NCBI GenBank assembly: GCA_017620915.1
Contig: JAFZSK010000014.1
Coordinates: 2,712-66,711, forward strand
DNA length: 64,000 nt
DNA from: Clostridia bacterium
GTDB taxonomy: Bacteria > Bacillota > Clostridia > UBA1212 > UBA1255
Reading direction: 5' to 3'
Shown: positions 2,753 to 36,394 of the stretch, piece after piece
How positions within the stretch are numbered: position 1 is the stretch's first letter
Layout: the number at the start of each line of letters is the position of its first letter
Translations under genes and position numbers: made by a program
Notes under the pieces: generated by a model
What the model saw: the letters and a program-made list of their open reading frames with translations, nothing else
Told to the model about the DNA's origin: nothing
The model's database searches: none

Positions 2753-4508
2753 AAGCCTTTCTTCTTTCTTCCATGTAGCCCGGGATCGGCACATCCCACC
2801 AGCCGAACGCTTCGCCGCCGGACCAGGGGTGTACGGAAGATACGGGCACGTGGATCAGCGCGGGGCCGTTCTGCTTGAGGGCGTCGGTCAGCGCGGCTTT
2901 GAGGCTCGCGTTGTCCTCCGCGCGGTACGCTTTGATATGGAAGCCCTCGGCGATGGCGCGGAAGTCCGGCGTGTACATTTTGCCGTCCTGTTCGAAGTCG
3001 TTGCCGAAGGTGTTTTCTTTGCCCAGCACATCCACCTGGAGGTCTTTGATGGCCATCCAGCCGCGGTTGTCCGCCAGTATGATCACGATGGGGATATTGT
3101 ACTGCGCCGCCGTAGACAATTCCTGCATCACCATCATAAAGTCGCCGTCGCCCACGAGGGCAACCACCGGCCGCTCCGGCGCCGCCAGCTTCGCGCCCAG
3201 CGCCGCGGGGAACGCCCAGCCCATGGTGGAGAAGCCGCCTGTGGTCAGGTTGCAGCCGCGCTCTGCGTAGCAGTATTCCTGGAACAGCTGCGCCTGGGTG
3301 TTGCCCGAAGACGTAGCGATGATCGTATCTTTCGGCAGCGTATCCGCCAGCACGCCGATCATGCGAGAGATGGTCATCTCCTGCGTCTGCGCGTTCCATT
3401 TGTCATGCACGAATTTGAACCAGTCCGCGCGGCGCTGTTTGATCTCGTCCAGGTAAGCCTGGTTGACTGTGAAGTCCGGATCTTTTTCCAGCACGCGGGT
3501 GAGGAAGGCGTTGACATCGGAGAACACGCCTACATCCGCGGCGTAGTTCTTGCCGATCTCGTGGCCGTCCAGATCCACCTGGATCAGCTTGGTATCCGGG
3601 AAGTTGAACGCCACGCCCTTGCGGTACGAGCAGGTGGACTCGTCGGCAAACCGCGTGCCCAGCGCCAGTATCACGTCCGCGCTGCGGCTGATCTCGAGAC
3701 CGATCTTGGTGCCCTTGCTGCCCGTGTGGAAGCAGTACTGGTCGTGGGTCTCGCGCACGGTGCCTTTGGCCGCCAGCGTGGTGATGATCGCCGCACCCCA
3801 TTTTTCCGCCAGTTTTTCGATGAGCTCGCCGGATTTAGCGTGCAGCGCGCCGCCGCCCGCAAAGATCAGCGGCCGTTTGGCGGTCTTCATAAGTTCGATG
3901 GCTTTGTCCACGGCGCCTTCATCCGGGCCCGGGAGCGTCCAGACCGGCTGCTTGGCCAGCGGGATCGTTTTTTCGGTGGAATCCGCCTGCACGTCCATGG
4001 GCAATGTGATGGCGCACGGACCGCGCCGCCCGGACAACATCTCTTTGAACGCGTTGTTCATGATGCGGGGCAGCTGATCCGCGGTCTCGGCGCGCCAGCA
4101 GCGTTTTACCAGCGGCTCCAGCGCGCGCTGGATGTTGCTGTCGTGGTTCTTTTCCACTTCCTGCAGCACGCCCACGCCGTACATGTTTGTGTGGGTGTCT
4201 CCGCACAGCGCCAGGAACGGGGTGGAGTCAACGAACGCCGTTGCCAGCCCGATGGACAGGTTCAGCGTGCCGGGGCCAATGGAGGCAAACACTGCCAGCG
4301 GCTCGCCCTTGACGCGGTAGTAGCCGTCCGCGATAGCCGTTGCCGCCTGCTCGTGCTTGACCTGCATATACTTGATCTTGCCGTCTGCTTCCGCCTTGCG
4401 GATCGCGTCGAACAGTCCCAGCACGCCGTGGCCGGGGATGCCCAGAATGTACGGCACTTTTTCATTTATAAGTTTCTGTACGATAACTTCTCCGCCAGTC
4501 TTTTTCAT
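2721..4508 (-). CDS. Thiamine-pyrophosphate enzyme of the acetolactate-synthase-large-subunit superfamily (IolD-like or Xsc-like; specificity unresolved)
   Basis: 595 aa with three-domain TPP-enzyme architecture: N-terminal PYR domain HEQAA..ADGY, a central domain, and C-terminal GDGDFMM...ILADNRGW (the TPP-binding GDG...N motif). Confidence 0.8.
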   Translation of the reverse strand: MKKTGGEVIVQKLINEKVPYILGIPGHGVLGLFDAIRKAEADGKIKYMQVKHEQAATAIADGYYRVKGEPLAVFASIGPGTLNLSIGLATAFVDSTPFLALCGDTHTNMYGVGVLQEVEKNHDSNIQRALEPLVKRCWRAETADQLPRIMNNAFKEMLSGRRGPCAITLPMDVQADSTEKTIPLAKQPVWTLPGPDEGAVDKAIELMKTAKRPLIFAGGGALHAKSGELIEKLAEKWGAAIITTLAAKGTVRETHDQYCFHTGSKGTKIGLEISRSADVILALGTRFADESTCSYRKGVAFNFPDTKLIQVDLDGHEIGKNYAADVGVFSDVNAFLTRVLEKDPDFTVNQAYLDEIKQRRADWFKFVHDKWNAQTQEMTISRMIGVLADTLPKDTIIATSSGNTQAQLFQEYCYAERGCNLTTGGFSTMGWAFPAALGAKLAAPERPVVALVGDGDFMMVMQELSTAAQYNIPIVIILADNRGWMAIKDLQVDVLGKENTFGNDFEQDGKMYTPDFRAIAEGFHIKAYRAEDNASLKAALTDALKQNGPALIHVPVSSVHPWSGGEAFGWWDVPIPGYMEERRKAYEHAITEETV

Positions 4509-4557
4509 AGTAGCTCCTTAACTTAAAACTTAAAACTTATAACTTGCAACTTGCAAC

Positions 4558-5610
4558 TTATTTGAGTTCCAGGTACGGATACGTGTCATTGACCACGATC
4601 TCGACCTTCCGGTTCTCCTCGATGCTCTTGATGCTGGCCAGCACCATGGCGATGCTGTAAACGTTGTCCTTGCAGTCCGTGCCGGGCGTGCGGCCGGTGT
4701 CCAGCGCGTCGAACAGATCTTCCAGTGCGCCGTCATGCTGATCGCGCACGACCTCAGGCTTCTCGAACACGCCCTCTTTGTACCACTCGCCGTAGTGGAG
4801 GCCGTTGGTGTGCTCAAAGTATTGGTAGTGCACGTCGCCGAAGCCGTCCCAGACCACGGAGCCCTTGTCGCAGTCGATGCGCCATTCGTTGTCCCAGGAT
4901 GTCCAGCAGGCCTGCGCGCCGTTGTAGCCGCGGAACAGGTAGGTCACGCCGTTGTCGAACTCGAATACCGCGTCGCACGCGGAATCGCCGGTGTACATGG
5001 AGCCCTTCGGCCGGAAGCTGTGGTAGATGACCGACGTGGGCTTGCCGTCCACGAGGTAGCGCGCCATATCGAAGCTGTGGATGTTGTTGTCCTGCAGCTG
5101 CGGGTATTTGAGGTTGTTGCGGATGCTGCCCATATCGGCGTTGACGTAAATGCTGCCGCTCAGCAGGGTAGGTTCGCCCAGCAGGCCGGATTTGACCAGT
5201 TCGCGGATCTTGCCCACGCGGTCAATGAAGCGGCGGTTCTGCATCACGAAGTAGTGCTTGCCGGTCTCGTCCACGGTCTTGAGGATCTCGTTGACCTGGT
5301 CAACGGTGAACGCCATCGGCTTCTCGCCGAACACGTTGTAGCCCGCTTTCAGCGCAGTGGTGACGATCTCGCAGTGCGCGGTGACGAAGGTGAGGTCAAT
5401 GAGCAGATCGCCCTTTTCGTTCTCCAGCGCTTCTTTTTCGCTGGTGTAGATGCGGCAGTCGAGGCCGTAGCGGTCGCGGTATTTGATGGCGTTGTCAACG
5501 TTCCGGTCCACGAGCGCGAGTACTTTGCAGTCGTCGCGTTTGGTGATGTGATCCAGCCAGCGGAAGGTGATGGCGCCGCAGCCGACGATGATGATGTTGT
5601 GTTTGATCAT
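4558..5610 (-). CDS. Gfo/Idh/MocA-family NAD(P)-dependent oxidoreductase (inositol 2-dehydrogenase-like)
   Basis: MIKHNIIIVGCGAITFRWL Rossmann N-terminus. AAAGGAG RBS 7 nt upstream of the ATG at 5610. The longer track ORF start was rejected. Confidence 0.85.
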   Translation of the reverse strand: MIKHNIIIVGCGAITFRWLDHITKRDDCKVLALVDRNVDNAIKYRDRYGLDCRIYTSEKEALENEKGDLLIDLTFVTAHCEIVTTALKAGYNVFGEKPMAFTVDQVNEILKTVDETGKHYFVMQNRRFIDRVGKIRELVKSGLLGEPTLLSGSIYVNADMGSIRNNLKYPQLQDNNIHSFDMARYLVDGKPTSVIYHSFRPKGSMYTGDSACDAVFEFDNGVTYLFRGYNGAQACWTSWDNEWRIDCDKGSVVWDGFGDVHYQYFEHTNGLHYGEWYKEGVFEKPEVVRDQHDGALEDLFDALDTGRTPGTDCKDNVYSIAMVLASIKSIEENRKVEIVVNDTYPYLELK

Positions 5611-5664
5611 GGTGAGTTCTCCTTTATATATAGTTGTGTGTCGTTTCAATGATTTAAGTTCTGC

Positions 5665-6522
5665 TCACAGATACAGGTCCAGCAGTTTGCGCATGTCCGG
5701 CGCGGCGGGCGCGTGTTTGCCGCCGTACGTGGTCGCCCGGTAGCCCCAGGACTCGAATTCCACGCTGGCGCAGCCCTCGTAGCCGATCTCTTTGAGCGCG
5801 TCGAAAAAGGCTTTGAAGTTCACATTGCCCTCGCCGATGACGGGGAAGGTGAAGCGGCCGGGTTCCGCGATGCCCACGGCATCCTTCAGGTGCACGTGGA
5901 AGATCTTGTTTTTGCCCCAGCCCTTGACCAGGAACTCCATGTCGGTGTTGCCGTACAGTACTTCGTGGGACGGATCCAGGTTGACGCCCAGGAACGGCGA
6001 ATCGTAGCGGCTCTGCAGGTACTGATTGGTGTAGAAATCGTGAACGAGCATGCCCCAGACGTTCTCCACAGCCAGCTTCACGCCGCACTGTTCCGCCACG
6101 GGCAATATCTCGTCGAACGCTTCGAAGACCCACTTCCAGGCGGTGCCGGCGGATACGTGGCGACCAACGATCACCGGATCCGGATTCCACGGCACGGGGC
6201 CGGTGAACAGGTTCGCGGTGGTGACGCCGAGGTCGGCAACTTTCTTCAGATTGGTCTTGATGGTCTCTATCGAGGCGCGACGGGCGTCAACGTCGGGTAT
6301 GACCAGGTCGTGCTGCAGCAGCACTTCGGATATTTTGAGGCCGTTGTCCGCGAGCGCCTTTGTGAGCGCTTCGTTGTCCGCGGCGGTCTTGCCGGGCGCG
6401 AAAATGATGTCGTCGATCAATTCCACGCAGTCGTACCCCGATTCCCGCACGTAATGGCATAGTTTACCGTAGTCCCAGCCGAGCATTTCTCCGTTCGCCA
6501 AAAAGCCTAATTGGATCATGAT
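5665..6522 (-). CDS. Sugar phosphate isomerase/epimerase (xylose-isomerase-like TIM barrel; IolE/IolI-like)
   Basis: MIQLGFLANGEM...CVELID....VENVWGM...LDPSHE...FHVHLKD motifs typical of the AP-endonuclease-2 / xylose isomerase-like fold. AAAGGAGG RBS before the ATG at 6522. Confidence 0.85.
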   Translation of the reverse strand: MMIQLGFLANGEMLGWDYGKLCHYVRESGYDCVELIDDIIFAPGKTAADNEALTKALADNGLKISEVLLQHDLVIPDVDARRASIETIKTNLKKVADLGVTTANLFTGPVPWNPDPVIVGRHVSAGTAWKWVFEAFDEILPVAEQCGVKLAVENVWGMLVHDFYTNQYLQSRYDSPFLGVNLDPSHEVLYGNTDMEFLVKGWGKNKIFHVHLKDAVGIAEPGRFTFPVIGEGNVNFKAFFDALKEIGYEGCASVEFESWGYRATTYGGKHAPAAPDMRKLLDLYL

Positions 6523-6677
6523 GTTCCTCCTTTGCGCAGTTGAGATGCAGCGTTTTCGTTTCTTATTGTGCAACGCGTTTCTGCATCTATAATTATACCT
6601 TAAAACTGCTCAAAACGCAAGCGTTTGTCCTTTGCTTTGTACTCTGGGTTATCCTTGTCACCATTATAGAGCGTGAG

Positions 6678-6822
6678 TGTCAGCCACAATTCTATTTTTA
6701 GTTGATTGTGGCTGATGGATAGAAGGAGTGTGTCAGCCACAATCCGTCATTTTGCCAATTGTGGCTGATGGACAGAAGAAGTGCGTCAGCCACAATCCGT
6801 TGTTTTGCCAATTGTGGCTGAC
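6678..6822. repeat. Tandem palindromic repeat family A: 3 copies of about 53 bp, each TGTCAGCCACAAT-N14-ATTGTGGCTGA
   Basis: Read directly at 6678-6732, 6733-6785 and 6786-6822. The arms are perfect 11-bp inverted repeats. The array sits in the divergent intergenic region between the catabolic operon and the IclR gene. Confidence 0.9.
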
Positions 6823-6837
6823 AAATCATTCTGTTTT

Positions 6838-6978
6838 CCCAGAAATGCGGCGCCATCACCCGGTTCGCAGCCTTTGCCATCTTCCTCTTTTCCCGCCCTG
6901 CGAAGCCGAGTGAATGGCAAAGCATTTCGTTCCTCAGAAATGCGCCGCCATCACCCGGTTCGCAGCATTTGCCATTTG
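6838..6978. repeat. About 40-bp direct repeat x2 (AGAAATGCGGCGCCATCACCCGGTTCGCAGC(C/A)TTTGCCAT), spaced about 97 bp
   Basis: Copies at about 6838-6880 and 6936-6978 are nearly identical. They generate spurious small ORFs. Confidence 0.8.
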
Positions 6979-7027
6979 CCCTCCGGTATGTTATTATAGT
7001 CCCACTTCCCGAAGGGCGGTCATCAAC

Positions 7028-7789
7028 ATGGACAAACAAGTGCAGACGATCAATTCACTGGCGCGGGGGCTCGCGATCATTGACCTCATACACGAACATG
7101 GGCGGCTCGGCGTGACCGAGCTGGGCAAGCTGCTGGGCGTCAACAAAAGCAGCGCATACCGCCTCCTGAAAACGCTGGAGGAGCACGGCTACGTGGAGCA
7201 GATCGCCGAGAACGGCAAGTATACCCTGGGCCTTAAACTCTGCAAATTCCGGGAGCGCGTGCTGGACTCTTACGACATTCGGGCGGTGGCGCATCCATAT
7301 CTGGAAGAATTGACGCGGCTCACCGGCGAAGCGGCGGGACTCAGCGTGCGCAAAGGGGACGAAGTGTTCCTGATCGACTGCCTCAGCGCGCCGCATCATC
7401 TGGGCGTGATCCTGCAGATCGGCGACCGGGAGGAACTGCACTGCACCGCGCACGGGAAGGCAATGCTTTCTGCGCTCCCCGAAGACGAGCAGCGGCGGCT
7501 GCTGAAAAAAGAGAAATTGACCGCGCATACCGTGTATACCGTCACGGACCGGGAGCAGCTGCTGGCGGTGGCGAAGGCAGACAAGGCGCGGCGGTACGCC
7601 GTTGACAACGAAGAAACGACGCTCGGCATGCGCTGCGTCGCGGCCAATATATACGATTTCAGCGGCAACGTCGTCGCGGCCATCGGCATCTCCGGCCCCA
7701 CAGACCGGGTCACCGAAGAAAAGATCCCCGAGTATGCGGGGATCATAACGCGGATCGCGGAAACTATATCGCGGCGGCTGGGGTATTGA
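7028..7789 (+). CDS. IclR-family transcriptional regulator
   Basis: N-terminal HTH (INSLARGLAIIDLIHEHGRLGVTELGKLLGVNKSSAYRLLKTLEE) plus a C-terminal IclR effector domain. Divergent from the catabolic operon. The start was moved to MDKQVQ. Confidence 0.85.
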   Translation: MDKQVQTINSLARGLAIIDLIHEHGRLGVTELGKLLGVNKSSAYRLLKTLEEHGYVEQIAENGKYTLGLKLCKFRERVLDSYDIRAVAHPYLEELTRLTGEAAGLSVRKGDEVFLIDCLSAPHHLGVILQIGDREELHCTAHGKAMLSALPEDEQRRLLKKEKLTAHTVYTVTDREQLLAVAKADKARRYAVDNEETTLGMRCVAANIYDFSGNVVAAIGISGPTDRVTEEKIPEYAGIITRIAETISRRLGY

Positions 7790-7804
7790 CCCTGCGCCGT
7801 TTTT

Positions 7805-8812
7805 TTACAGCAGCGGGATGCCCGCGTTTTCGCAGGCGGCAACGGTTGCCTCGTCCCAGATACTCGACTGCACTTCGCCTATGTGGGCACAGCCCAGCAT
7901 CAGCATGCAGAGGCGGGATTGGCCGATGCCTCCGCCGATGGTGAGCGGGAGTTCCCCGGCCAGCAGCATCTTATGGAACGGCAGTTTGCGGCGGTCATCA
8001 CAGCCCGCGAGCGTGAGCTGGCGGTCCAGCGATTCGGGATCCACGCGGATGCCCATAGAGGAGATCTCCAGCGCGTTGTCCAGCACGGGATTCCAGAACA
8101 GGATATCGCAGTTGAGCGCCCAGTCGTCGTAGTCCGGCGCGCGGCCGTCGTGAGGAATGCCCGAGCGCAGGTTGCCTCCGATCTGCATGATGCACGCGGT
8201 GTGGTGGCGGCGCAGGAATTCGCGCTCGCGCTGCTTCGGCGTCAGTTCCGGATACATGTCCTCCAGTTCCTGCGAAGTGATGAACGTGACGTCGCGCTCC
8301 AGTTCGACGGTGAGCTGCGGAAAACGCACGTGCAGGCTGTCGTTGGTGTCGGCGATAGCGCCCACCACGGCGCGGACAATAAGTTTCAGATAGTCGAGAT
8401 CACGGTTCGCGGCGGTGATGATCTTTTCCCAGTCCCACTGGTCAACGTAAATGGAGTGGATGTTGTCCGGTTCCTCGTCCCGCCGGATGGCGTTCATGTC
8501 GGTGTACAGTCCGTTGCCCACGCTGAAATGATACCGCTTCAGTGCGAGCCGCTTCCATTTGGCCAGCGAATGCACGACCTGGGCGTCAACGCCGATCGCC
8601 GGCACGTCGAAATCCACCGGCCGCTCGTAGCCGTTGAGGTTGTCGTTGAGGCCGGAACTTTCGGTGACGAACAACGGCGCCGATACGCGCTTGAGGTTCA
8701 GCGCTTTGGCAAATTCGCGCTGGAATGTATCTTTTATGAACGCGATCGCGCGCTGCGTGTCGTATTCGTCGAGGATCGGCTTATAGCCGGCGGGGATGAT
8801 GAGTCTGTTCAT
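7805..8812 (-). CDS. asnA: Aspartate--ammonia ligase (asparagine synthetase A)
   Basis: 335 aa with ...YVDQWDWEKII... and full-length similarity to class-II aaRS-like AsnA. GAAAGGA RBS. Confidence 0.9.
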   Translation of the reverse strand: MNRLIIPAGYKPILDEYDTQRAIAFIKDTFQREFAKALNLKRVSAPLFVTESSGLNDNLNGYERPVDFDVPAIGVDAQVVHSLAKWKRLALKRYHFSVGNGLYTDMNAIRRDEEPDNIHSIYVDQWDWEKIITAANRDLDYLKLIVRAVVGAIADTNDSLHVRFPQLTVELERDVTFITSQELEDMYPELTPKQREREFLRRHHTACIMQIGGNLRSGIPHDGRAPDYDDWALNCDILFWNPVLDNALEISSMGIRVDPESLDRQLTLAGCDDRRKLPFHKMLLAGELPLTIGGGIGQSRLCMLMLGCAHIGEVQSSIWDEATVAACENAGIPLL

Positions 8813-8904
8813 ACGCGTATTCCTTTCGGCAGGGCGGAGGGCAATCGGAGCGCCGCGCGGTACCGGGCAATATTATAACAAACGGGAAGGGAAATGGCAA
8901 AAGC

Positions 8905-10689
8905 CTATTCGACCACAGTCACTTTGACCGTAAAGCTGTGGGTGCCGGCGATCGTGACGTTGACCTCCGCCGTGCCCGGAGCGTGGGGGTAGATCAGGCC
9001 GCGCTGATTGAGCGTGATCACGGACGGGTCGGACACCTCGTATGTGACGGGGAAGTTGCGGGCAGAGATCATGTTGCCCTCGTTGTACGCCTCGCCCCAG
9101 CTGTGGTCGGAAAAGCGCACCAGCCCGCGGATCTGCTGCCGGTGGACGTCCGTCAGCGACAATGTATACTCCGCGATCACCGGCGTAAACTCCACCACCG
9201 TTCGGGGCGAGGAGCCCTGAAACTCGGAGAACGTCTCCCGGATGTACACTTTGAACTCGTTCTCGAAATTGCCGTAGCGTACGGTCACCCGGGTCTCACC
9301 GGTCTTGCCTTTGGTGTAGACGCGGTTGCCCTTTATCGAGATCAGCGAGCTGTCGTAGCCGGAGTATTTGATCTTTTTCGTGTCGTTCAGCGCATGGGCG
9401 CCCAGCATCGGATCCAGCCACACGAAAGAGACCGTGCCGTAATCCTCGTTTTTCTGGATCTCCACGATCTTGACGTTGGGGGCAATGCCGATCATCGGCG
9501 GATCGCTCTCCCGCTCCTGCAGGTAGCCTTCTTTCAGCACGCCGCGGGCGTTGGGGTCAATTGCCTCCGGCTCGCCGGTATACAGCTCCAGCTTCACAGG
9601 CTGGAAGGCGGTGGCCCATTTGCCCCAGTTGCCCTCGGCGCCGTCGCTGAACGCGTACCCCACGAACACCGGGTCCTTCAGCTGGATGTGGCCATCCGGC
9701 CGCCGTGCCACGCCCATATTGTGACAATACTGATACAGTCCCGTGCGCAGCAGCCCGGTCTGGCGGAACGTCAATCCGTCCTCCGACTCCAGTATAGCGA
9801 TCCCGCTCTGTGCCGAGAACCGGTGCTGGGTACAGAAACCGATGAACTTGCCCGCATCCTCTAAATACGCCACGTCGCAGGAGTCCTGGCTGTTGATCTT
9901 TTCGTATGCCTGCCCCCGGAACTCCAGCCGCGCGGGCCAGTCCTCCGCCGTGTCCGACGTGGACACATACACGAAATTGCCCTCGGGGCAGATCCAGGTG
10001 TAGTACATGTATAAAACGTCGTCCACGATCACAAAACTGGGCTCGCCGGCGCCGTAACTCAGGTCATATTCGTCGTAATAGATGATCGGGGCCGGATCGC
10101 CGCCCCAGCCGCTGCCGTTCCACTTTTCGTACGGGCCGTCCGCCGATTTGGAGCGGGCAACGAACACGTTATTGTTGACTCCGCCGTTCGTGCTGACAAT
10201 GGTGGAAGTGTAGCCTAAATAATAATACCCGCCGAAATACACCGCACCGGGATCGCAGCAGGAGAATTTGTCCATGGAATCCGCGCAGGGGACCAGTGTG
10301 ACTTTTTCGCCGCTGAAATTGACGCCGTCAACAGAATGCTTCACCGACAGCCAGTCCCACTCGCCGCCGTACCCGTTGGTGGAGAACCAGGCATCGCACG
10401 TGCCGTCCGCATAATACATGATCGTGGGGCCGTAGCGGTATCCGGCGGCGTCCACCGGCGGCGCGTATATAATGTTGGGCTCTCCGGCGGCGGTGACTCG
10501 CACATGGGTGTCCGGATCGGGGTCAATGGCCGGCAGCGTGTCCGTAAACAACGCCGGCGGCTTCGGTCCTTTGCGGCAGCCGGAAAACAGCAGCGGAAGA
10601 CACAAAGCAATGCACAGCACGAGGCAAAAAGCCCTGCGCAGTGCATTGCGGGTCAATATGCTTTTTTGCTTTTCAGCGTGCTTTCCCAT
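8905..10689 (-). CDS. Secreted lipoprotein of unknown function (possible glycoside-hydrolase-like beta-propeller) with C-terminal bacterial Ig-like domain
   Basis: Signal peptide with lipobox LLFSGC. Long Trp/Tyr/Gly-rich central region. C-terminal GTAEVNVTIAGTHSFTVKVTVV Big_2-like strand pattern. Function not assignable from sequence alone. Confidence 0.5.
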   Translation of the reverse strand: MGKHAEKQKSILTRNALRRAFCLVLCIALCLPLLFSGCRKGPKPPALFTDTLPAIDPDPDTHVRVTAAGEPNIIYAPPVDAAGYRYGPTIMYYADGTCDAWFSTNGYGGEWDWLSVKHSVDGVNFSGEKVTLVPCADSMDKFSCCDPGAVYFGGYYYLGYTSTIVSTNGGVNNNVFVARSKSADGPYEKWNGSGWGGDPAPIIYYDEYDLSYGAGEPSFVIVDDVLYMYYTWICPEGNFVYVSTSDTAEDWPARLEFRGQAYEKINSQDSCDVAYLEDAGKFIGFCTQHRFSAQSGIAILESEDGLTFRQTGLLRTGLYQYCHNMGVARRPDGHIQLKDPVFVGYAFSDGAEGNWGKWATAFQPVKLELYTGEPEAIDPNARGVLKEGYLQERESDPPMIGIAPNVKIVEIQKNEDYGTVSFVWLDPMLGAHALNDTKKIKYSGYDSSLISIKGNRVYTKGKTGETRVTVRYGNFENEFKVYIRETFSEFQGSSPRTVVEFTPVIAEYTLSLTDVHRQQIRGLVRFSDHSWGEAYNEGNMISARNFPVTYEVSDPSVITLNQRGLIYPHAPGTAEVNVTIAGTHSFTVKVTVVE

Positions 10690-11050
10690 ATTTTTCCACG
10701 TGTTTTTTGATGGCGTCGAAGGTCTTGTCGCTCAGATAGTGTTCGATGCGGCAGGCGTCTTCCGCGGCGGTCGCTTCGTCAACGCCCAGATCGGTGAACA
10801 GCCGGCTGAGCAGCTGATGGCGCTCGTAAATGTGTTTTGCCCGGTTTTCGCCCGCTTCGGTGAGCGAAATGAATCCCTGCGCGTCGGTGACCACGAGCCC
10901 GTCCTTTTTCAGCAGCCCCAGCGCACGGCTGACGGAGGGCTTCGAGTAGCCCATGTACGTACCGACGTCAATGCTCCGCACCGCCGTTGACTTCTGTGAC
11001 AACACATATATGGTTTCGAGGTACATTTCTCCGGATTCGCGTAAAGTCAT
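10673..11050 (-). CDS. DtxR/MntR-family metal-dependent transcriptional regulator (short form, no SH3-like domain)
   Basis: MTLRESGEMYLETIYVLSQ...SVSRALGLLKKDGLV HTH and dimerisation region typical of MntR/IdeR. Divergent from the feo operon. Confidence 0.85.
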   Translation of the reverse strand: MTLRESGEMYLETIYVLSQKSTAVRSIDVGTYMGYSKPSVSRALGLLKKDGLVVTDAQGFISLTEAGENRAKHIYERHQLLSRLFTDLGVDEATAAEDACRIEHYLSDKTFDAIKKHVEKYGKAR

Positions 11051-11203
11051 ACTGCTGCCTCCTCCGTCTGCCTGCGGTCAATGCTCGCCCGGCCGCGGTT
11101 TGCGGCCACGTTCCGGCTGTGATTGCCCGGCTGTCAACCGAAATTATAGCGTAAACAGCGGCAAGTTGCAAATGGCGGCCGGCGCTTCGCCTCCTTTTCT
11201 GTT

Positions 11204-11520
11204 TTCGTCAGCCACAAAGTGCAAAAGTCCCGAGTTGTGGCTGACACCTCCTTGTGATTCGTCAGCCACAAAGTGCAAAAACCCCGGGTTGTGGCTGACA
11301 CCTTCCGCTGATTCGTCAGCCACAAAGTGCAAAAGCCCCGGGTTGTGGCTGACACCTCCTTGTGATCCGTCAGCCACAAAGTGCAAAAACCCTGGGTTGT
11401 GGCTGACACCTTCTTGTGATTCGTCAGCCACAAAGCGCAATATTCCCGGGGTGTGGCTGACACCTCCTTGTGATTCGTCAGCCACAAAGTGCAAAAGTCC
11501 CGGGTTGTGGCTGACACAAT
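11204..11520. repeat. Tandem palindromic repeat family A-prime: 6 copies of about 61 bp (TCGTCAGCCACAAAGTGCAAAAGTCCCGGGTTGTGGCTGACACCTCCTTGTGAT)
   Basis: The arms GTCAGCCACAA / TTGTGGCTGAC are the same as in family A at 6678 but with a different 17-bp spacer. The six copies are more than 90% identical. They explain the repeat-derived ORFs 11134..11517 and 11144..11743. Confidence 0.9.
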
Positions 11521-11760
11521 TCTTCGCGGAGGCCGAAAAGATGAAAAGAAAGGGGTTTCGGCCTACGTCCATCCTTGTTGCGGAGGCCGAAAAGGTGGAA
11601 AGAAATGGTTTTCGGCCTACGCTCCGCCTCTTCGCGGAGGCCGAAAAGATGGAAAGTAAAGGGTTTCGGCCTACGCTCCACCTCTTCGCGGAGGCCGAAA
11701 AGATGGAAAATAAAGGGTTTCGGCCTCCATCATCGGCCTCCAAACATTTTTCAAAAAAGC
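11521..11760. repeat. Tandem palindromic repeat family B: 4 copies of about 60 bp (CGCGGAGGCCGAAAAGATGGAAAG.AAAGGGTTTCGGCCTACGCTCC)
   Basis: Each unit has GAGGCCGAAA ... TTTCGGCCTC inverted arms. The same family occurs at 32380-32690. Confidence 0.9.
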
Positions 11761-11762
11761 TA

Positions 11763-11791
11763 TTGACAAGTTAGCGGCGGCTAATTATAAT
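11763..11791 (+). promoter_or_regulatory. Consensus sigma-A promoter TTGACA-N17-TATAAT upstream of feoA
   Basis: TTGACA at 11763-11768, 17-nt spacer, TATAAT at 11786-11791. The first DtxR-like box overlaps the spacer. Confidence 0.6.
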
Positions 11792-11884
11792 ATACGACGG
11801 TTAGCGACAGCTAACCTATTATTACGATGAATGGTTAGCATAAACTAACCAATAATTACGACCAAAAGTTAGCAAAAGCTAACT
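11769..11884. promoter_or_regulatory. Array of four 18-bp DtxR/IdeR-like palindromic operators (GGTTAGC-N4-GCTAACC), phased about 34 bp apart
   Basis: Boxes at 11769-11786 (AGTTAGCGGCGGCTAATT), 11799-11816 (GGTTAGCGACAGCTAACC), 11833-11850 (GGTTAGCATAAACTAACC) and 11867-11884 (AGTTAGCAAAAGCTAACT). The half-sites resemble the DtxR consensus TTAGGTTAGCCTAACCTAA but have a longer centre. Confidence 0.65.
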
Positions 11885-11918
11885 CAATCGACACATATCA
11901 CGGGGAGGGCAGGAAAAC

Positions 11919-12131
11919 ATGATACCGCTCTGTTACGCAGAAACAGGACAGCCGCAGATCATAAAGAAGATCGGCGGCAATCCGGAGACCAGACAGCACC
12001 TGGAGAACCTCGGGTTCAACATCGGGGGAGAGGTCGTTGTCATCAGCACCCTGGGCGAGAACATGATCATCAAAGTCAAGGAATGCCGTGTTGCCGTCAG
12101 CGACGAGCTGGCGCGGAAAATAATGGTCTGA
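11919..12131 (+). CDS. feoA: Ferrous iron transport protein A (FeoA domain)
   Basis: 70 aa, SH3-like FeoA (..TGQPQIIKKIGGNPETRQHLENLGFNIGGEVVVIS..). GGGGAGGG RBS. Confidence 0.85.
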   Translation: MIPLCYAETGQPQIIKKIGGNPETRQHLENLGFNIGGEVVVISTLGENMIIKVKECRVAVSDELARKIMV

Positions 12132-12153
12132 CAATATAAAGGAGGAATATCAC

Positions 12154-12384
12154 TTGAAAACACTCAGAGACGTAAAAATCGGCGAGACCGCCACAGTTGT
12201 GAAACTTCACGGAGAAGGCGCGGTAAAGCGGCGCATCATGGACATGGGCATCACCCGGAGAACTAAAGTATACGTGCGCAAAGTTGCCCCGCTCGGCGAC
12301 CCCATCGAAGTCACTGTCCGGAATTACGAGCTCTCAATCCGCAAAGCGGACGCGGAAATGGTCGAGGTCGAAGAAACCGAGTGA
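12154..12384 (+). CDS. feoA: Second FeoA-domain protein (TTG start)
   Basis: 76 aa, LRDVKIGETATVVKLHGEGAVKRRIMDMGI.. FeoA fold. AAAGGAGG RBS 7 nt before the TTG. Confidence 0.8.
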   Translation: MKTLRDVKIGETATVVKLHGEGAVKRRIMDMGITRRTKVYVRKVAPLGDPIEVTVRNYELSIRKADAEMVEVEETE

Positions 12385-12411
12385 GCAGATAAGCAGAAAG
12401 GAAGCATTTTT

Positions 12412-14937
12412 ATGGACATCAGAATCGCCCTCGCGGGCAATCCGAACAGCGGTAAAACGACGCTATTCAACGCGTTGACCGGCTCCAACCAGTTCGTGGG
12501 CAACTGGCCCGGCGTCACCGTGGAAAAGAAGGAGGGCAAGCTGAAGAAGCACGACGGCGTTATTGTCACCGACCTGCCCGGCATCTACTCGCTCTCGCCG
12601 TACACGCTGGAAGAAGTGGTGGCGCGCAACTACCTCATAGGCGAGCGGCCGGACGCGATACTGAACATCGTTGACGGCACAAACCTGGAACGAAACCTGT
12701 ACCTGACCACGCAATTGACGGAGCTGGGGATCCCGGTGGTAGTCGCCATCAATATGATCGACATCGTTAAAAAGGAAGGCGACAAGATCAACACCGCGGA
12801 ACTGTCGCGCCAGATCGGCTGCCCCGTGATCGAGATCTCCGCGCTGAAGGGCACCGGTATAATGGAGGCTGCGGAAGCGGCCATTGACGCCGCGCAGAAC
12901 GGCAAGACCATACCGCAGCACAAATTCTCCGGCCCCGTGGAGCACGCGCTGGCGCATATTGAGGAGGCCGTTGTCCACGACCTGCCCGAAGAGCAGCAGC
13001 GCTGGTACGCGGTGAAGATCTTCGAGCGCGACGAAAAAGTGCTGGAATCGGTCAAACTGGATCCCGACACGCTGGCGCACATCGAGAAGGATATCCAGGC
13101 TGCCGAGACCGAGCTGGATGACGACGCGGAAAGCATCATCACCAACGAGCGCTACATCTACATCGCGGAAGTCATCAAGGCCTGCTATAAAAAGAAGAAA
13201 GAGAATCAGCTGACGAAGAGCGACAATATCGACAAAGTCGTCACCAACCGGTGGCTTGGTCTGCCGATCTTTGCCATCGTAATGTTCCTGGTGTACTACA
13301 TCGCGATGGTGACGGTGGGTACCGCGGCTACCGACTGGGCCAACGACGGCCTGTTCGGCGACGGCTACCATCTGTTCGGCATTGGGTCAAAAAAATACGA
13401 GACGAAAGTCGAAGATTACGAAGCCGCGGTCAACGCCCTCGCCGCGTTCGAATTTGACGTGGATACCGAGGCGGAGGATTTTGACGCGGACAAACTCGCA
13501 ACGAAGATACAGAGTTTCACCACGGACAAGACGTCTGCCGAAGTTGATGTAACGGATGATGAGACGCTGGAAGAGACGACGCTGACGGTATATTATGACA
13601 CGGTCCCCGCGGATGCCGATGAGGAAACCACTAACGCTATGACATTTAAAGAAGCGGTGGAATACTTCAAGGGCAGGGACTTCAGTTTCGACGAGCCGGA
13701 TCCCGCGGACGACGGCGTCTGGGTGCCCGGTGTTCCCGCGCTGCTGGATAAGCTGCTCCTTGATGCGAATGGCGATCCTAAAGTTCCCGACTGGCTGTAC
13801 GGCCTGATCCAGAACGGTATCGTGGCCGGCGTCGGCGCGGTGCTCGGCTTCGTGCCGCAAATGCTGGTGCTGTTCTTCCTGCTGGCGATCCTGGAGGGCT
13901 GCGGCTACATGGCGCGTATTGCCTTCGTGCTGGACCGTATTTTCAGAAGATTTGGTCTTTCAGGCAAATCCTTCATACCGATGCTCGTGGGTACCGGCTG
14001 CGGCATCCCCGGCATAATGGCCTCGCGAACGATAGAAAATGAACGCGACCGCCGTATGACAATTATGACCACCACGTTCATTCCCTGCGGCGCCAAACTG
14101 CCCTTCATCGCGATGGTGGCCGGCGCACTGTTCGGCGGGTCTGCGTGGGTATCCGTTTCCGCATACTTTATCGGCATGGCGGCGATCATCATCTCCGGTG
14201 TGATGCTTAAGAAGACCAAGCGATTCGCGGGCGATCCCGCGCCCTTCGTAATGGAACTTCCGGCGTACCATCTGCCTACACTGAAAAACGTGCTGCGTTC
14301 CACCTGGGAGCGCGGCTGGTCCTTCATCAAAAAAGCCGGCACGATAATCCTGCTTTCCACTATTGTAGTCTGGTTCACGTCGTACTTCGGCTGGGTCGAC
14401 GGTTCGTTCCGGATGCTGGCGGAAGAGGAGATGGGCAACTCGATCCTGGCTTACATCGGCAAAGGCTTCGCCTGGCTCTTCGCACCGCTCGGCTGGGGCA
14501 ACTGGAAAGCTGCGGTCGCGTCCGTCACCGGACTGGTGGCCAAGGAAAATATTGTCGGTACGATGGGTATCCTGTACGGCAACTGGGCCGGCATTGCCGC
14601 CTCGTTCGCAACTAAATTCGCGGGCTTCTCGTTCCTGGTGTTCAACCTGCTCTGCGCCCCGTGCTTCGCGGCGATCGGCGCTATCCGGCGCGAGATGAAC
14701 AGCGCGAAGTGGACGTGGTTCGCGGTAGGCTATCAGTGCGGTTTCGCGTATGCGATCGCGCTCATGATCAACCAGTTCGGCAATCTGTTTACCGGCAAAC
14801 TCGCTTCCGGCGCCGGAGCCGCGGTCAATGTGATCAGTCTGATCGTTGCCTTCGCGGTGCTGGGTCTGATGATCTACATGTTGTTCTTCCGCAAATATAA
14901 GGAGGCAACGAAACTCACTCAGACTGTCAAAGTCTGA
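12412..14937 (+). CDS. feoB: Ferrous iron transporter FeoB (unusually long, 841 aa, with a large acidic insertion)
   Basis: N-terminal G-domain (IALAGNPNSGKTTLFNALTG ... DLPGIYSL), a GDI-like region and a polytopic C-terminal membrane domain. About 140 aa of D/E-rich sequence is inserted near residues 300-440. Confidence 0.9.
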   Translation: MDIRIALAGNPNSGKTTLFNALTGSNQFVGNWPGVTVEKKEGKLKKHDGVIVTDLPGIYSLSPYTLEEVVARNYLIGERPDAILNIVDGTNLERNLYLTTQLTELGIPVVVAINMIDIVKKEGDKINTAELSRQIGCPVIEISALKGTGIMEAAEAAIDAAQNGKTIPQHKFSGPVEHALAHIEEAVVHDLPEEQQRWYAVKIFERDEKVLESVKLDPDTLAHIEKDIQAAETELDDDAESIITNERYIYIAEVIKACYKKKKENQLTKSDNIDKVVTNRWLGLPIFAIVMFLVYYIAMVTVGTAATDWANDGLFGDGYHLFGIGSKKYETKVEDYEAAVNALAAFEFDVDTEAEDFDADKLATKIQSFTTDKTSAEVDVTDDETLEETTLTVYYDTVPADADEETTNAMTFKEAVEYFKGRDFSFDEPDPADDGVWVPGVPALLDKLLLDANGDPKVPDWLYGLIQNGIVAGVGAVLGFVPQMLVLFFLLAILEGCGYMARIAFVLDRIFRRFGLSGKSFIPMLVGTGCGIPGIMASRTIENERDRRMTIMTTTFIPCGAKLPFIAMVAGALFGGSAWVSVSAYFIGMAAIIISGVMLKKTKRFAGDPAPFVMELPAYHLPTLKNVLRSTWERGWSFIKKAGTIILLSTIVVWFTSYFGWVDGSFRMLAEEEMGNSILAYIGKGFAWLFAPLGWGNWKAAVASVTGLVAKENIVGTMGILYGNWAGIAASFATKFAGFSFLVFNLLCAPCFAAIGAIRREMNSAKWTWFAVGYQCGFAYAIALMINQFGNLFTGKLASGAGAAVNVISLIVAFAVLGLMIYMLFFRKYKEATKLTQTVKV

Positions 14938-15182: not shown

Positions 15183-15227
15183 ATTCGGCCTCCGCTGCGC
15201 AGGGACGCCTTGCAGCGGAGGCCGAAC
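15183..15227. terminator. Bidirectional intrinsic-terminator hairpin (15-bp perfect stem TTCGGCCTCCGCTGC / GCAGCGGAGGCCGAA)
   Basis: Lies between the convergent feo operon and the surface-protein gene. The GC-rich stem was read directly. The flanking T-tract is weak. Confidence 0.55.
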
Positions 15228-19351: not shown

Positions 19352-21709
19352 ATGACATTGTCCGGATCGATCAGTAAGCTCGGGAGCGGGATACAGAAGA
19401 TCGTTGACAAATTCATGGGCTGCGGCCTGTCGCAGGAAGAGACGCGCGCCGAAGGGGAGCGATACGTCACGCCCGGAATCGGCGAAGTGGCCCGTAGAGT
19501 GGCGGCGGAGAGCGTTGTCCTCCTCAAAAACGACGGCATGCTGCCGCTCTCGAAGGAGAAGCCGGTGGCGGTGTTCGGGCGTTGTCAGTTCGACTGGTTT
19601 TACGTGGGATACGGCAGCGGCGGCAACGTCCACGCGCCCTATTATGTGAATCTGATGAAGGGGCTGGACAACGCGGGCGCGGCATACGACCGCGAACTGG
19701 CGGCGGAGTACCGCAGCTGGACAGAGAGTCCGAAATACAAGGCGAACCACGGCTGGTGGGGGCACTGGCCGTTCAGCCATCCGGAGATGGAAATCACGGA
19801 CGAGACGCTTAGGCGGGCGGCGGACAATACGGACACCGCACTGGTGGTCATCGGCCGCGCGGCCGGCGAGGATCGGGACAACCGCCTTATTCAGGGCAGC
19901 TACTATCTGACCGACGCGGAGCTCCGGCTGCTGGACCAGGTCACCGAGGCGTTTGCGCATGTTGCCGTCGTGCTCAACACCGGCAGCATCATCGATATGG
20001 CGTGGACGGAGCGGTACGGGAATAGATTGTCCGCGATCCTGATCGCGTGGCTGGGCGGCATGGAGAGCGGCAACGCGGTGGCCGACGTCCTGTACGGCGC
20101 CGTCGATCCATGCGGGAAGCTGCCGGACACCATCGCGCGGCGATACGAGGATTATCCGTCGGCGGCGAATTTCGGGGGCAAAAAGTTCAACGAATACCGC
20201 GAAGACGTGTTCGTGGGCTACCGGTATTTTGACGAGCATCCGGACCGGGTGCTGTGGCCGTTCGGGTTCGGATTGAGCTACGCGCAGTACGAGTTCGGGG
20301 CGCCGGAGGACAGCGTGCGCCTGCCGGAAGCGGACAACGCGCCGCTGCGGCTGCGCGCGGAAATTACAGTGAAGAATCTTGGCTTTTGTACAGGGGGACA
20401 GACCCCGTGTTCAAAAAGCCGGACGTCGGTGGCGCTGTATTGCCGCCGGCCGGAGGGCAATATCCGCAAGCCGCGCCGGGTGCTGGTCGCCTTCGCGATG
20501 ACGCAGGAACTGGCGCCGGGAGAGGCGGAGCGCGTGGTGCTGGAGGCGGATGCGAAGAGCATTGCCACCTTCGACGCAGACCGGAACGCGTTCGTGCTGG
20601 AAGCGGGTCAATACGAGTTTTACGCGGAATCCACCCCGATCGGCGGTTTTTCGACGGAGTTCCGCGTGCTGGAGCAGTGCACTGAGATTTGCACCTCGAG
20701 CGTCGCACTGCGCGAGCGTATCCTGTCTGATTTGAACAAGGGGACAGACCCCGTGTCAAAAGAAAGCGTGTCAGCTCACGCGGCGGAGATCTTAGACCGG
20801 CTCACGGACGCGGATATGGCGGCGTTGACCCGCGGCCACGGAATGATGAACTCCCCGCTGGGCACGAAGGGCAACGCCGGCGTTCTCGGCGGCATCACGC
20901 CGGCGCTCCGGGAAGCGGGTATTCCGCCCATTGTCACCTCCGACGGCCCCGCGGGCCTCAGGCTCGCCGCGTATTGTACGCTCTTGCCGTGCGGGACCGC
21001 CATTGCCGCCTGCCGGGACACGGCGCTGGCAGAGCAATTGTTCGCGCTGGTGGGGAATGAAATGGGGCACTACGGCATTGACATCTTCCTCGGCCCCGGC
21101 ATGAACCTGCACCGCAACCCGCTCTGCGGCCGGAATTTCGAGTATTTCGCGGAAGACCCCGTGGTCACCGGAACCATGGCGACGGCGGTGGTGCGCGGCA
21201 TACAGTCCGCGGGCAAAGCGGCCTGCCCGAAGCATTTCGCGTGCAACAACCAGGAGTTCAAGCGCAACACCAACGACTCGCGGCTGTCAACACGCGCCCT
21301 GCGCGAACTCTATCTCCGCGGCTTCGAGATCTGCGTAAAGACCGCAGCGCCCCTCGTGCTGATGACCTCGTACAACAAGGTCAACGGCGTCTGGGCCCAC
21401 TACAATTACGACCTGGCCACCGCGGTGCTGCGGGGCGAGTGGGGATTCGAGGGCCTGGTGATCACCGACTGGTGGATGCAGCGGTCAAAAAGCCCCGAAT
21501 TTCCGCGCCTCCGGGACAATGCGTACCGCGTCCGCGCGGGTGTTGACGTCCTGATGCCGGGCAACCTCGGCAAATCTGCCCACAAATACGTCCCCGACCG
21601 CTCGCTGACGAAGCGCCTCGACACGCCCGGCGGGCTTACGCGCGCCGAACTGCGCCGGACCGCGGCACGGGTGATAAGGCTGGGGGAGAAAATTAAAAGT
21701 GATAAGTGA
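19352..21709 (+). CDS. Glycoside hydrolase family 3 beta-glucosidase-like enzyme (domain order permuted; carries two in-frame palindromic element insertions)
   Basis: GH3 catalytic-domain motifs (KHFACNNQE..R, SYNKVNGVWAHYNYDL, GFEGLVITDWW) lie in the C-terminal half. The GH3 C-terminal alpha/beta domain lies in the N-terminal half. Confidence 0.8.
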   Translation: MTLSGSISKLGSGIQKIVDKFMGCGLSQEETRAEGERYVTPGIGEVARRVAAESVVLLKNDGMLPLSKEKPVAVFGRCQFDWFYVGYGSGGNVHAPYYVNLMKGLDNAGAAYDRELAAEYRSWTESPKYKANHGWWGHWPFSHPEMEITDETLRRAADNTDTALVVIGRAAGEDRDNRLIQGSYYLTDAELRLLDQVTEAFAHVAVVLNTGSIIDMAWTERYGNRLSAILIAWLGGMESGNAVADVLYGAVDPCGKLPDTIARRYEDYPSAANFGGKKFNEYREDVFVGYRYFDEHPDRVLWPFGFGLSYAQYEFGAPEDSVRLPEADNAPLRLRAEITVKNLGFCTGGQTPCSKSRTSVALYCRRPEGNIRKPRRVLVAFAMTQELAPGEAERVVLEADAKSIATFDADRNAFVLEAGQYEFYAESTPIGGFSTEFRVLEQCTEICTSSVALRERILSDLNKGTDPVSKESVSAHAAEILDRLTDADMAALTRGHGMMNSPLGTKGNAGVLGGITPALREAGIPPIVTSDGPAGLRLAAYCTLLPCGTAIAACRDTALAEQLFALVGNEMGHYGIDIFLGPGMNLHRNPLCGRNFEYFAEDPVVTGTMATAVVRGIQSAGKAACPKHFACNNQEFKRNTNDSRLSTRALRELYLRGFEICVKTAAPLVLMTSYNKVNGVWAHYNYDLATAVLRGEWGFEGLVITDWWMQRSKSPEFPRLRDNAYRVRAGVDVLMPGNLGKSAHKYVPDRSLTKRLDTPGGLTRAELRRTAARVIRLGEKIKSDK
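20384..20417. mobile_element. In-frame palindromic element copy (TTTTGTACAGGGGGACAGACCCCGTGTTCAAAAA) inside the GH3 gene
   Basis: Imperfect palindrome. It encodes the extra peptide FCTGGQTPCSKS within a GH3 beta-sandwich region. It has TGT where the consensus TGA would create an in-frame stop. Confidence 0.7.
20731..20762. mobile_element. Second in-frame palindromic element copy (TTTGAACAAGGGGACAGACCCCGTGTCAAAAG) inside the GH3 gene, in a different reading frame
   Basis: Encodes LNKGTDPVSKE. Same core, GGGGACAGACCCC. Confidence 0.7.
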
Positions 21710-21865
21710 TAAGTTATAAGTGATAAGTGATAAGGGAGGGACTTCCAACTTCTAACTTGAAACTTAAAACTTAAAACTTGAAACTTTACATTCTTCCGTG
21801 ACTGGGATATAATGCACATATGCAGCGAGCGCAAAACGCGCTCCGTAAAAAGGAGGAACGAAATC

Positions 21866-22352: not shown

Positions 22353-22463
22353 TCTTATAACGGCTGTTAAAACAGGGACGGTGTTCAGGCAGCCTTTTCT
22401 TTTTGTTTTTTCCGTGGTTATATAGTGAAAAGGCAGTTGGGAATACTTCCGGCGCCATGGGTG

Positions 22464-36293: not shown

Positions 36294-36394
36294 ATTATCT
36301 TCCCACTCCTTAGATGTAGGTTTTGTTTCCCCATGATTATATCGCAGACGTACTGCTTAAATCAATCGCTATGCAACTGGCACTGCCGACATCT

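Follow-up and report, generated by a model that had tools for sequence, protein, structure and literature searches.

The block at 11204–11740, between a dtxR-like repressor gene and the feo operon of this uncultured Clostridia bacterium, consists of two abutting tandem arrays of hairpin units, and is probably selfish or neutral, lineage-specific hairpin-minisatellite DNA of the REP/BIME/BOX kind that would act, if at all, at the level of DNA. It lies outside the iron regulon. This reading follows from the arrays being dispensable, polymorphic, dispersed and indifferent to the function of their neighbours, and from the elements of iron control being separate from them. A reading of the sequence alone had listed a lineage-specific, REP/BIME-like selfish class as one of several possibilities, and this is the one favoured here: the arrays are dispersed, vary between strains in presence and copy number, and are absent from the loci compared in distant relatives. 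Throughout, the window denotes the whole 64,000-nt stretch of DNA that was analysed.

Tandem Repeats Finder and a second repeat search, which agree on the 54-bp spacing, placed two abutting arrays, A2 and then B1, where the sequence-only reading had located its repeat block. A2 (11204–11517) has a period of 54 bp, 5.8 copies and 89% matches; B1 (11521–11726) has the same period, 3.8 copies and 85% matches, and ends in a partial arm duplication that extends it to 11740. The inverted repeats described earlier are present, in both families around 17 nt, and the two arrays are composed as follows.

11204 to 11517, plus strand: array A2, 5.8 units of 54 bp, each made up of GTCAGCCACAA, a 17-nt A-rich spacer (AGTGCAAAAnCCCnGGG), TTGTGGCTGAC and a 15-nt spacer (ACCTCCTTGTGATTC)
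11521 to 11740, plus strand: array B1, about 4 units of 54 bp, each made up of GGAGGCCGAAA, a 17-nt spacer (AGATGGAAAGnAAAGGG), TTTCGGCCTAC and a 15-nt spacer (GCTCCACCTCTTCGC)

Unit lengths of 61 and 60 bp had been reported; the actual unit is 54 bp, which is also the length of the A unit quoted at the time. Against the reported copy numbers of six and four, A2 has 5.8 units and B1 about four. The reported identity above 90% between copies is slightly generous, at 90–92% for A (in 150-nt registers) and 82–85% for B. A unit opens with an 11-nt arm; an A-rich spacer (17 nt), the arm in inverted form and a pyrimidine-rich spacer (15 nt) follow in that order. Because the second spacer is about as long as the first, every arm pairs equally well with either neighbouring arm. 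The B arms carry a single conserved G.A mismatch. Folded as DNA, single-unit hairpins reach −10 to −13 kcal/mol (z −2.1 to −4.7). Within the window GTCAGCCACAA, with up to one mismatch, has 19 matches against 0.94 expected, and GGAGGCCGAAA has 22 against 1.6. The concern that the array might be a collapsed assembly artefact is dispelled, since two ENA assemblies of other samples reproduce it, one identically (L016) and one with a single mismatch (L018); contigs of four related strains also carry variants of it. Assembly breaks are associated with arrays: one contig (L017) stops within the array, and very short contigs carry many of the repressor's homologues.

The window holds six arrays; the four besides A2 and B1 have periods of 53, 53, 53 and 84 bp and the same design. 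Recurrence of family A near 6678 and of family B near 32380, noticed earlier, was confirmed, and two arrays that had been missed were added, at 22461–22769 and 36385–36763.

6666 to 6824, minus strand: array A1, 3 units of 53 bp with the arms of A2 in opposite orientation, in the spacer that separates an IclR gene from a divergent xylose-isomerase-like gene
22461 to 22769, plus strand: array C, 5.8 units of 53 bp, arms CGGTATCCC/GGGATACCG
32385 to 32680, plus strand: array B2, about 5 units of 53 bp, colinear with B1, arms GGAGGCCGAAA/TTGCGGCCTCC
36385 to 36763, plus strand: array D, 84-bp period, hairpins of CGTCTAGCAAA and TTTGCTAGACG around 17–18 nt

Together the repeat family makes up about 3% of the window. 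C has its loop (ATATGGAAAAAC) and the spacer motif CGCTCC in common with B1, the loops of D begin with AGTG like those of A2, and an (A/G)TG-purine-AAA motif is shared by the loops of the arrays. B2 is followed by a terminator-like hairpin and a T-run. A covariance model built from 19 representative hairpins matched only inside arrays and gave no singletons in the 64 kb, a partly circular result given that the model was built from these sequences. One strand, termed 'sense', scored about 15–20 bits above the other in this model, and on that basis every array was given an orientation.

Scans of public collections with the A hairpin extended the family beyond the window. Arrays were detected on six metagenome contigs of the JAEEGL/JAEEGF sets (L037, L039 with three arrays, L042, L046, L076 and L077), where every period is 53 or 54 bp; an A array adjoins a B array on L076, and the array on L077 lies upstream of tRNA-Met/Glu. 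The rumen MAG RUG14896 carries a related 64-bp form, and a reindeer MAG a 53-bp form with compensated arms, GCTACAA/TTGTAGC. The 53–54-bp design (11-nt arm, 14–17-nt A-rich spacer, inverted arm, 15-nt pyrimidine-rich spacer) recurs with differing arms at at least 12 loci, and TGATTG loops and TCATCCT linkers are common to the A-type and B-type arrays of other contigs. On the strength of the common loops, linkers and CGCTCC spacer motif, we read the array families as apparently homologous units that differ mainly in their arms. Had the motifs been confined to the loci first noticed, local regulatory duplication would have been the favoured account; they are dispersed at other loci, and such a duplication is therefore not the explanation. 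A ruminant-gut source is suggested by the labels of samples and MAGs (RUG, reindeer, and study codes read here as those of ruminant-gut projects). At NCBI, identical proteins carry the label 'Clostridia bacterium' MAG and close homologues that of 'Oscillospiraceae bacterium'.

Further matches from the metagenome and genome scans were set aside as unrelated, namely a GGGGTCAGCCACAATT...AATTGTGGCTGACCCC palindrome family of other environments, a repeat on JGI24700/Ga0099364 contigs that we take to be eukaryotic, and single chance matches in Porphyromonas, Hoyosella and others. Rfam gave no hits in the window at gathering thresholds, and a permissive search of 11100–11950 gave a best hit of E = 0.75 (18.6 bits against a threshold of 60.3). 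BLAST of the A and B units against PLSDB plasmids returned no match, and a string search of the literature for the arm sequences returned only unrelated primer sequences. On these searches, the arrays are best read as a previously undescribed, lineage-specific repeat family.

At the locus itself, Pfam domains agree with the earlier assignment of the flanking genes as dtxR-like and feo.

10673 to 11050, minus strand: gene of a DtxR/MntR-type metal-dependent repressor, 125 aa (Pfam PF01325 and PF02742, Fe_dep_repress and Fe_dep_repr_C)
11143 to 11171, minus strand: promoter-like site of the repressor gene, TTGCAA-17-TATAAT (consensus scan), with a ATTATAGC box kept in relatives
11763 to 11791, plus strand: promoter-like site of feo, TTGACA-17-TATAAT, 12/12 (consensus scan), kept in relatives
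11770 to 11785, 11800 to 11815, 11834 to 11849 and 11868 to 11883, no strand assigned: four 16-bp palindromes GTTAGC-N4-GCTAAC, candidate DtxR/IdeR-type operators
11919 to 14937, plus strand: feoA (11919–12131), feoA (12154–12384) and feoB (12412–14937), Pfam FeoA, FeoA and FeoB

The arrays start 33 bp upstream of the −35 hexamer of the repressor promoter and end 23 bp upstream of that of feo, filling the space between the two divergent hexamers almost exactly. By their sequence, the four GTTAGC-N4-GCTAAC palindromes are the obvious candidate operators for feo; they resemble the DtxR/IdeR box, TTAGGTTAGCCTAACCTAA. They overlap and follow the feo promoter, downstream of the hairpin arrays and separate from them. 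The only local consequence of the arrays is likely to be that the two promoters stand about 540 bp apart. The window is otherwise an ordinary chromosomal region with metabolic genes: the 40 ORFs scanned are of housekeeping or metabolic character, and no transposase, recombinase or cas gene was found among them.

Comparison within the species complex, defined by FeoB identity of at least 90%, shows how variable this site is. A sister strain at 93–94% nucleotide identity (L081) has an empty site, with ggcggctggggcttc joined directly to aaactttttt in a 383-bp spacer. L079 carries 4.8 A units and one degenerate B hairpin, L080 5.8 A units and one B, L074 (98% identity) 5.8 A units and at least 2.9 B, and the window 5.8 A units and 3.8 B. 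The comparison of copy number between strains that had been proposed from the sequence alone therefore yields a varying unit number, with 0, 4.8 or 5.8 units for A and from 0 to 3.8 for B. More distant relatives (DtxR 75–84% identical) have divergent dtxR and feoA genes, the ATTATAGC box, a TTGACAagttagc...TATAAT promoter and operators, all within 210–280 bp, and no 53–54-bp arrays were found in their fetched loci (8–20 kb each, about 83 kb in total). These comparisons show the dtxR–feo array to be an insertion into the spacer that separates two divergent promoter-like sites; neither a sister strain nor other species have it, and the insertion is recent.

In copy number as in unit sequence, the arrays turn over faster than the DNA around them. 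Unit variants stand in different orders in the window and in L074, which likewise indicates the faster turnover. The A1 site holds 3 units in the window and 4.8 in L074 as well as in L079 and L080. In the latter two its arms are hybrids, GGAGGCCGCAAT/ATTGTGGCCTCC, intermediate between A and B, with the outer three bp swapped on both sides (TCA...TGA to GAG...CTC). Array C is absent from L079, L080 and L081; filled and empty C loci differ by about 600 bp including non-repeat flanks, which is not a clean unit insertion, and their comparison revealed no clean target-site duplication. B2 has about 5 units in the window and 4.3 in a sister strain (L082), where it is bounded on one side by the stop codon of a 1055-aa gene, deleted in the window, and on the other by a terminator-like hairpin with a T-run, and so occupies a 3'UTR. 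The members of a GFO-family cluster (L084–L087) have a different synteny and are uninformative for B2 and D.

The arms are far more constrained than the rest of the unit. Across the 36 A units of eight arrays at different loci, each of the 22 arm positions has its consensus base in at least 90% of units, and most spacer positions in about 30–70%; at the same time, at least four unrelated arm sequences occur with one geometry. When the alignment across arm types is constrained to the hairpin, pairing reaches 90.4% of cells, against 29–44% with slid partners. Both sides have changed in 11 of 13 pairs, and none of 500 shuffles reaches the observed value. Since the arrays were recognised as palindromic in the first place, this covariation is not an unbiased discovery of structure and mainly shows that homologous units stay paired while their arms change. 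The core pairs display full Watson-Crick swaps only, with no G-U intermediates or one-sided changes, a pattern that fits DNA pairing, or symmetric recognition of double-stranded DNA, better than RNA. Complementarity between loops and linkers (pseudoknot), inspected by eye across arrays, was inconsistent, and counts of G-T versus A-C mismatches (transcribed-strand test) were dominated by fixed features of a few arrays, with an ambiguous orientation in RUG14896, and gave no robust signal. The near-invariance of the arms, including the G.A mismatch of B, exceeds what simple selection for a hairpin explains and would also fit a sequence-specific, functional host protein. Neutrality does not explain it.

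Placement is similarly non-uniform. Among nine sites with both flanks known (those in metagenomes judged from ORFs only), six are divergent, three co-directional and none convergent; at least six divergent sites of nine, against a 25/50/25 expectation, has a binomial p of about 0.01, a value that takes no account of divergent spacers being longer. D is flanked by divergent promoter-like sites at 36336–36365 (minus strand) and 36836–36865 (plus strand), and there, as at the feo locus, the nearest promoter-like sites on both sides have the array upstream of them. C lies about 96 bp upstream of a GH2 promoter-like site. The gene layout at A1 is divergent as well, and the promoter scan listed no minus-strand site there. 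Arrays are co-oriented with the genes downstream of them (FeoA, GH2, a beta-helix protein, DUF3737), and the functions of neighbouring genes are unrelated across loci. The preference for promoter spacers and the consistent orientation hint at function or at targeted insertion.

Taking these observations as products of selfish or neutral DNA, we infer from the one-unit differences in copy number that the arrays grow and shrink by replication slippage or by unequal recombination between units. The simplest reason for the retention of the arms would be that spread or maintenance needs a DNA hairpin or cruciform, or a trans-acting enzyme that reads it; that DNA and not RNA is the acting level is suggested by the lack of G-U intermediates and by the arrays lying upstream of both promoters. 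Between divergent promoters, negative supercoiling may help the hairpins to extrude and the arrays to expand. No mobilising enzyme or dispersal mechanism was found within about 150 kb of lineage sequence. A more specific and rather unlikely proposal is that the arrays are a mobile hairpin minisatellite whose arms are read by a dedicated enzyme. That enzyme, specific for structure or sequence and for instance a single-strand DNA transposase of the HUH/Y1 type, would recognise the invariant 11-bp arms, excise single 53–54-nt units and reinsert them beside existing hairpins to give head-to-tail arrays. Such units would be targeted to, or retained in, negatively supercoiled promoter-upstream DNA, where they might act as cruciform-forming topological insulators between divergent genes.

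Known repeat classes offer partial parallels to the selfish-DNA reading. The arrays resemble REP elements and BIME clusters, the GTAG-/CGTC-tagged palindromic repeats of Di Nocera et al. 2013 (PMC3733652), in that they are short, extragenic, imperfect palindromes with many dispersed copies and several sequence families per genome, in that stem substitutions are complementary, and in that clusters reiterate units together with flanking DNA. The hairpin core of 39 bp with an 11-bp stem is within the 20–40-bp range of REPs, whereas its loop of 14–17 nt compares with 2–5 nt in most REPs and 9–27 in only some families. The A arms begin with CGTC and the B right arm ends with CTAC, the reverse complement of GTAG (compare E. 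coli GTAGGCCG...). The tag-like ends are (T/C)CGTCAGCC in A, CGTCTAGC in D and GGCCTAC in the B right arm; GTC/GAC and most of GTAG fall inside the stem, and the GTC and TAC 'tags' are thus base-paired here, whereas they are unpaired in REPs. According to PMC3733652, head-to-tail arrangement is rare or negligible among REPs, which favour inverted dimers (strictly head-to-tail in all arrays here), most REPs are located 3' of genes, with convergent or unidirectional ORFs on either side (a preference for promoter-upstream and divergent spacers here), and its family sections name hosts that are proteobacteria or other non-Firmicutes (a Clostridia MAG here). The arrays are also unlike BIME-2, composed of alternating inverted REPs that are each palindromic and bound by gyrase, in that the alternating elements here are 11-nt non-palindromic arms. 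No RAYT or IS200 TnpA was detected in the window or the lineage loci by tblastn with approximate query sequences. The matches obtained in L040 and L048 were rejected as evidence of such a link: they adjoin chance pattern matches (GTCAGCTACAAGGACATCAAGCAGGTTGTGGCTGA) that read as coding, presumably for an IS256-like transposase.

BOX elements, the pneumococcal boxA-(boxB)n-boxC repeats (Croucher et al. 2011, PMC3049150), share with the arrays a Firmicutes host, a tandem module of about 45–55 bp whose number varies by strain, predicted stem-loops, a frequent position near promoters and the creation of spurious ORFs by long arrays. Unlike BOX, the arrays lack boxA/boxC-like terminal modules and terminal inverted repeats and begin and end with a complete hairpin, left arm first and right arm last; their flanks at different loci share only spacer-like sequence. 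BOX is over-represented between convergent genes (PMC3049150, Table 1), and the arrays are not. More generally, REP, BOX and RUP elements show enrichment in spacers that follow genes or separate convergent ones (PMC3733652; PMC3049150, Table 1), the opposite of the promoter-upstream spacers favoured by these arrays. The arrays and BOX have no sequence similarity. Mycobacterial MIRU and other bacterial VNTR minisatellites are intergenic tandem repeats of about 50 bp with copy numbers polymorphic between strains, in which they are like the arrays. MIRUs differ in not being centred on an invariant inverted-repeat hairpin, and they typically lie within operons and have small ORFs that overlap the flanking genes.

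Transcription of the arrays in the 'sense' direction into structured, multi-hairpin RNAs is also rather improbable. Such RNAs could possibly serve as 3'UTR stabilisers or terminator cassettes, as REPs do, or as a multivalent small RNA, with single-stranded ACCUCCUU linkers that would imitate the anti-Shine-Dalgarno sequence in the manner of the tandem CcsR/'cuckoo' RNAs. The strand difference in the covariance model indicates orientation-specific conservation, and the co-orientation of arrays with downstream genes, the 3'UTR position of B2 in L082, and the match of the linker CACCTCCTT to the 16S 3' end can be counted on the same side. Whole-block folding is strong, at z −7.3 on the plus strand and −9.3 on the minus strand, but both strands fold equally well, as they do in any palindrome array. 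Loops and linkers are poorly conserved, G-U intermediates are absent from the covarying pairs, and the arrays are dispensable in a sister strain (L081). The sole Rfam hit of this kind, CcsR1, has E = 3.7, far under threshold. The two divergent promoter-like sites of the focal locus, like those of D, both point away from the arrays, and none is directed into them. This makes the small-RNA or terminator cassette suggested earlier unlikely at dtxR–feo; it may still apply to other copies, B2 having a 3'UTR position in L082.

A platform for a host-function protein is, in our estimate, quite unlikely. In that case the arms would bind a nucleoid-associated or regulatory protein, gyrase or IHF as at BIMEs, or the adjacent DtxR-like or IclR regulators, and arrays between promoters would be insulators or supercoil buffers. 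Nearly invariant arms with drifting spacers and the preference for promoter-upstream and divergent spacers agree with this, as do the periods of 53–54, 64 and 84 bp, which approximate 5, 6 and 8 helical turns as a matter of arithmetic only. However, a half-site spacing of 26–28 bp places consecutive sites on opposite faces of the helix, one geometry accommodates at least four unrelated arm sequences, and at one orthologous site (A1) the arms have been swapped wholesale. Binding by the neighbouring DtxR-like and IclR proteins, which had been suggested for testing, is not supported: DtxR-type operators differ from the arms in sequence and position and are kept in array-less relatives, the same families stand beside functionally unrelated genes, and a sister strain with the same regulon has no array.

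Coding, whether for a repeat protein such as the 273-aa ORF at 10953–11774 on the plus strand or for translationally coupled mini-ORFs of 18 codons with GGAGG-N8-ATG and ATGA overlaps in B-type arrays, is highly improbable in either form and effectively refuted. A 54-bp unit is 18 codons long, which leaves frames open through A2 and B1; B units carry GGAGG 5–9 nt before ATG, and gene calling placed a 142-aa ORF on the L016 array. But the 53-bp period of most arrays shifts the frame with each unit, and unit number varies freely among strains. Furthermore, A-family units have neither ATG nor Shine-Dalgarno sequence, the 273-aa ORF starts within the repressor gene on the opposite strand, and the stop-start overlap is an automatic outcome of combining an ATGA motif with a 53-bp period. 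A known repeat-RNA system, either a CRISPR array or a type III toxin-antitoxin array with ToxI-like repeats upstream of an endoRNase toxin, would match the regular tandem repeats with palindromic cores, and type III arrays are common in Clostridia according to PMC3401426, but this is extremely improbable and refuted by gene content, with no cas genes among the 40 ORFs scanned and downstream genes that are not ToxN/AbiQ-like; the 'spacers' are themselves repeated in every unit with none unique, and Rfam gave no hit.

For annotation, recognition of the block as probable selfish or neutral DNA removes a false lead, the hairpins not being part of the DtxR/Fe control of feo. Because the arrays vary between strains at 93–98% identity, they could serve as a strain marker. 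Invariant arms, drifting spacers, a fixed unit length, head-to-tail order and a promoter-upstream bias form a combination unlike REP, BIME or BOX, and this makes the mode of spread of the family a tractable question.

Besides the hairpin arrays, the window contains degenerate heptamer arrays of two types, (AAGTTNN)n / (AACTTNN)n and (GCAAATG)n / (CCTTTGC)n, which were also located on other contigs:

4513-4560, window, heptamer array
21693-21786, window, heptamer array
25024-25075, window, heptamer array
32135-32261, window, heptamer array
40469-40560, window, heptamer array
52237-52292, window, heptamer array
10806-10880, contig L042, heptamer array
3440-3500, contig L046, heptamer array
4488-4609, related strain L079, heptamer array (TTTGCCN)n
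6561-6629, related strain L079, heptamer array (CAAATGG)n

These arrays lie immediately 3' of stop codons or shortly 5' of ribosome-binding sites; inverted blocks are often found side by side, and long AT-rich hairpins are predicted from them. In form they are like the STRR heptamer repeats of cyanobacteria. On L042 and L046, hairpin arrays are directly flanked by heptamer arrays.

The IclR-asnA segment is oriented oppositely in the window strain (6968-8901) and in L079 (4600-6578), and the difference also holds against the related strain L080. In L079 this segment is bracketed by the two inverted heptamer arrays, and the window retains a 33-bp sequence, cagaaatgcg(g/c)cgccatcacccggttcgcag, in duplicate (6838-6870 and 6939-6970); together, these features of sequence suggest that the inversion arose by recombination between heptamer arrays. 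A second rearrangement lies at the B-type array B2 (32385-32680, plus strand), where about 3.2 kb present in the sister strain L082 (2450-5700), including genes of 1055 and 204 aa, is missing from the window (32248-32440). The deletion has fused a promoter-like site, TTGAAA-16-TATAAT (32248-32275), and a start codon to a gene's last codons, resulting in a 31-codon remnant ORF (32341-32436) that reads into the first degenerate B2 unit.

A palindromic 31-nt element, TTTGAACA(G/C)GGGGACAGACCCCGTGTTCAAA, is a repeat family distinct from the hairpin arrays. Six occurrences were counted, with the element arranged as a 24-bp tandem pair in two cases, and it is kept in related species, beside or within the gatB/mur-ligase region:

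20385-20415, window, 31-nt element
20731-20761, window, 31-nt element
39346-39400, window, 31-nt element
41281-41334, window, 31-nt element
5399-5447, relative L084, 31-nt element
relatives L085-L087, 31-nt element

Downstream of feoB, a lone perfect hairpin with a 15-bp stem, TTCGGCCTCCGCTGC[13]GCAGCGGAGGCCGAA (15184-15226), separates a convergent small cysteine-rich ORF 3' of feoB from the gene that follows. Its CGGCCTCC/GGAGGCCG core is also found in the B arms, but it gave no match to the hairpin-array covariance model. This hairpin could be a terminator, and either the source or a borrower of the B arm sequence.

Three large paralogous genes follow in succession at 42252-51955 (1023, 1258 and 818 aa), all with F5/8 type C (discoidin) domains. 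The internal repeats are common to the three genes, as is a near-identical C-terminal segment that looks like a sortase-type cell-wall sorting signal: ...PPQTGDA plus a hydrophobic stretch. On contig L039, a 98-aa ORF (423-719, minus strand) lies between arrays L039_1 (1-250) and L039_2 (826-1187). The two arrays belong to separate families, the one beside the 3' end of the ORF being B-type and the one beside its 5' end A-type. Judged by eye, its product looks like a putative RelB/DinJ-type antitoxin.

Within window positions 1-12000, the gene strand shifts from minus (about 300-6573) to mostly plus (11919 onward), cumulative GC skew reaches its minimum near 4-10 kb, and the hairpin-array sense orientation assigned by the covariance model is minus for the sole array on the left, A1 (beside the IclR gene), and plus for all arrays right of the switch. 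Array orientation is thus confounded here with gene or replication direction.

Among the matches listed, most homologues of the DtxR/MntR-type repressor were found on very short contigs (0.5-3 kb), and contig L017 terminates within the first array unit. In this clade, short-read assemblies may often be interrupted by repeat arrays adjoining the repressor gene.
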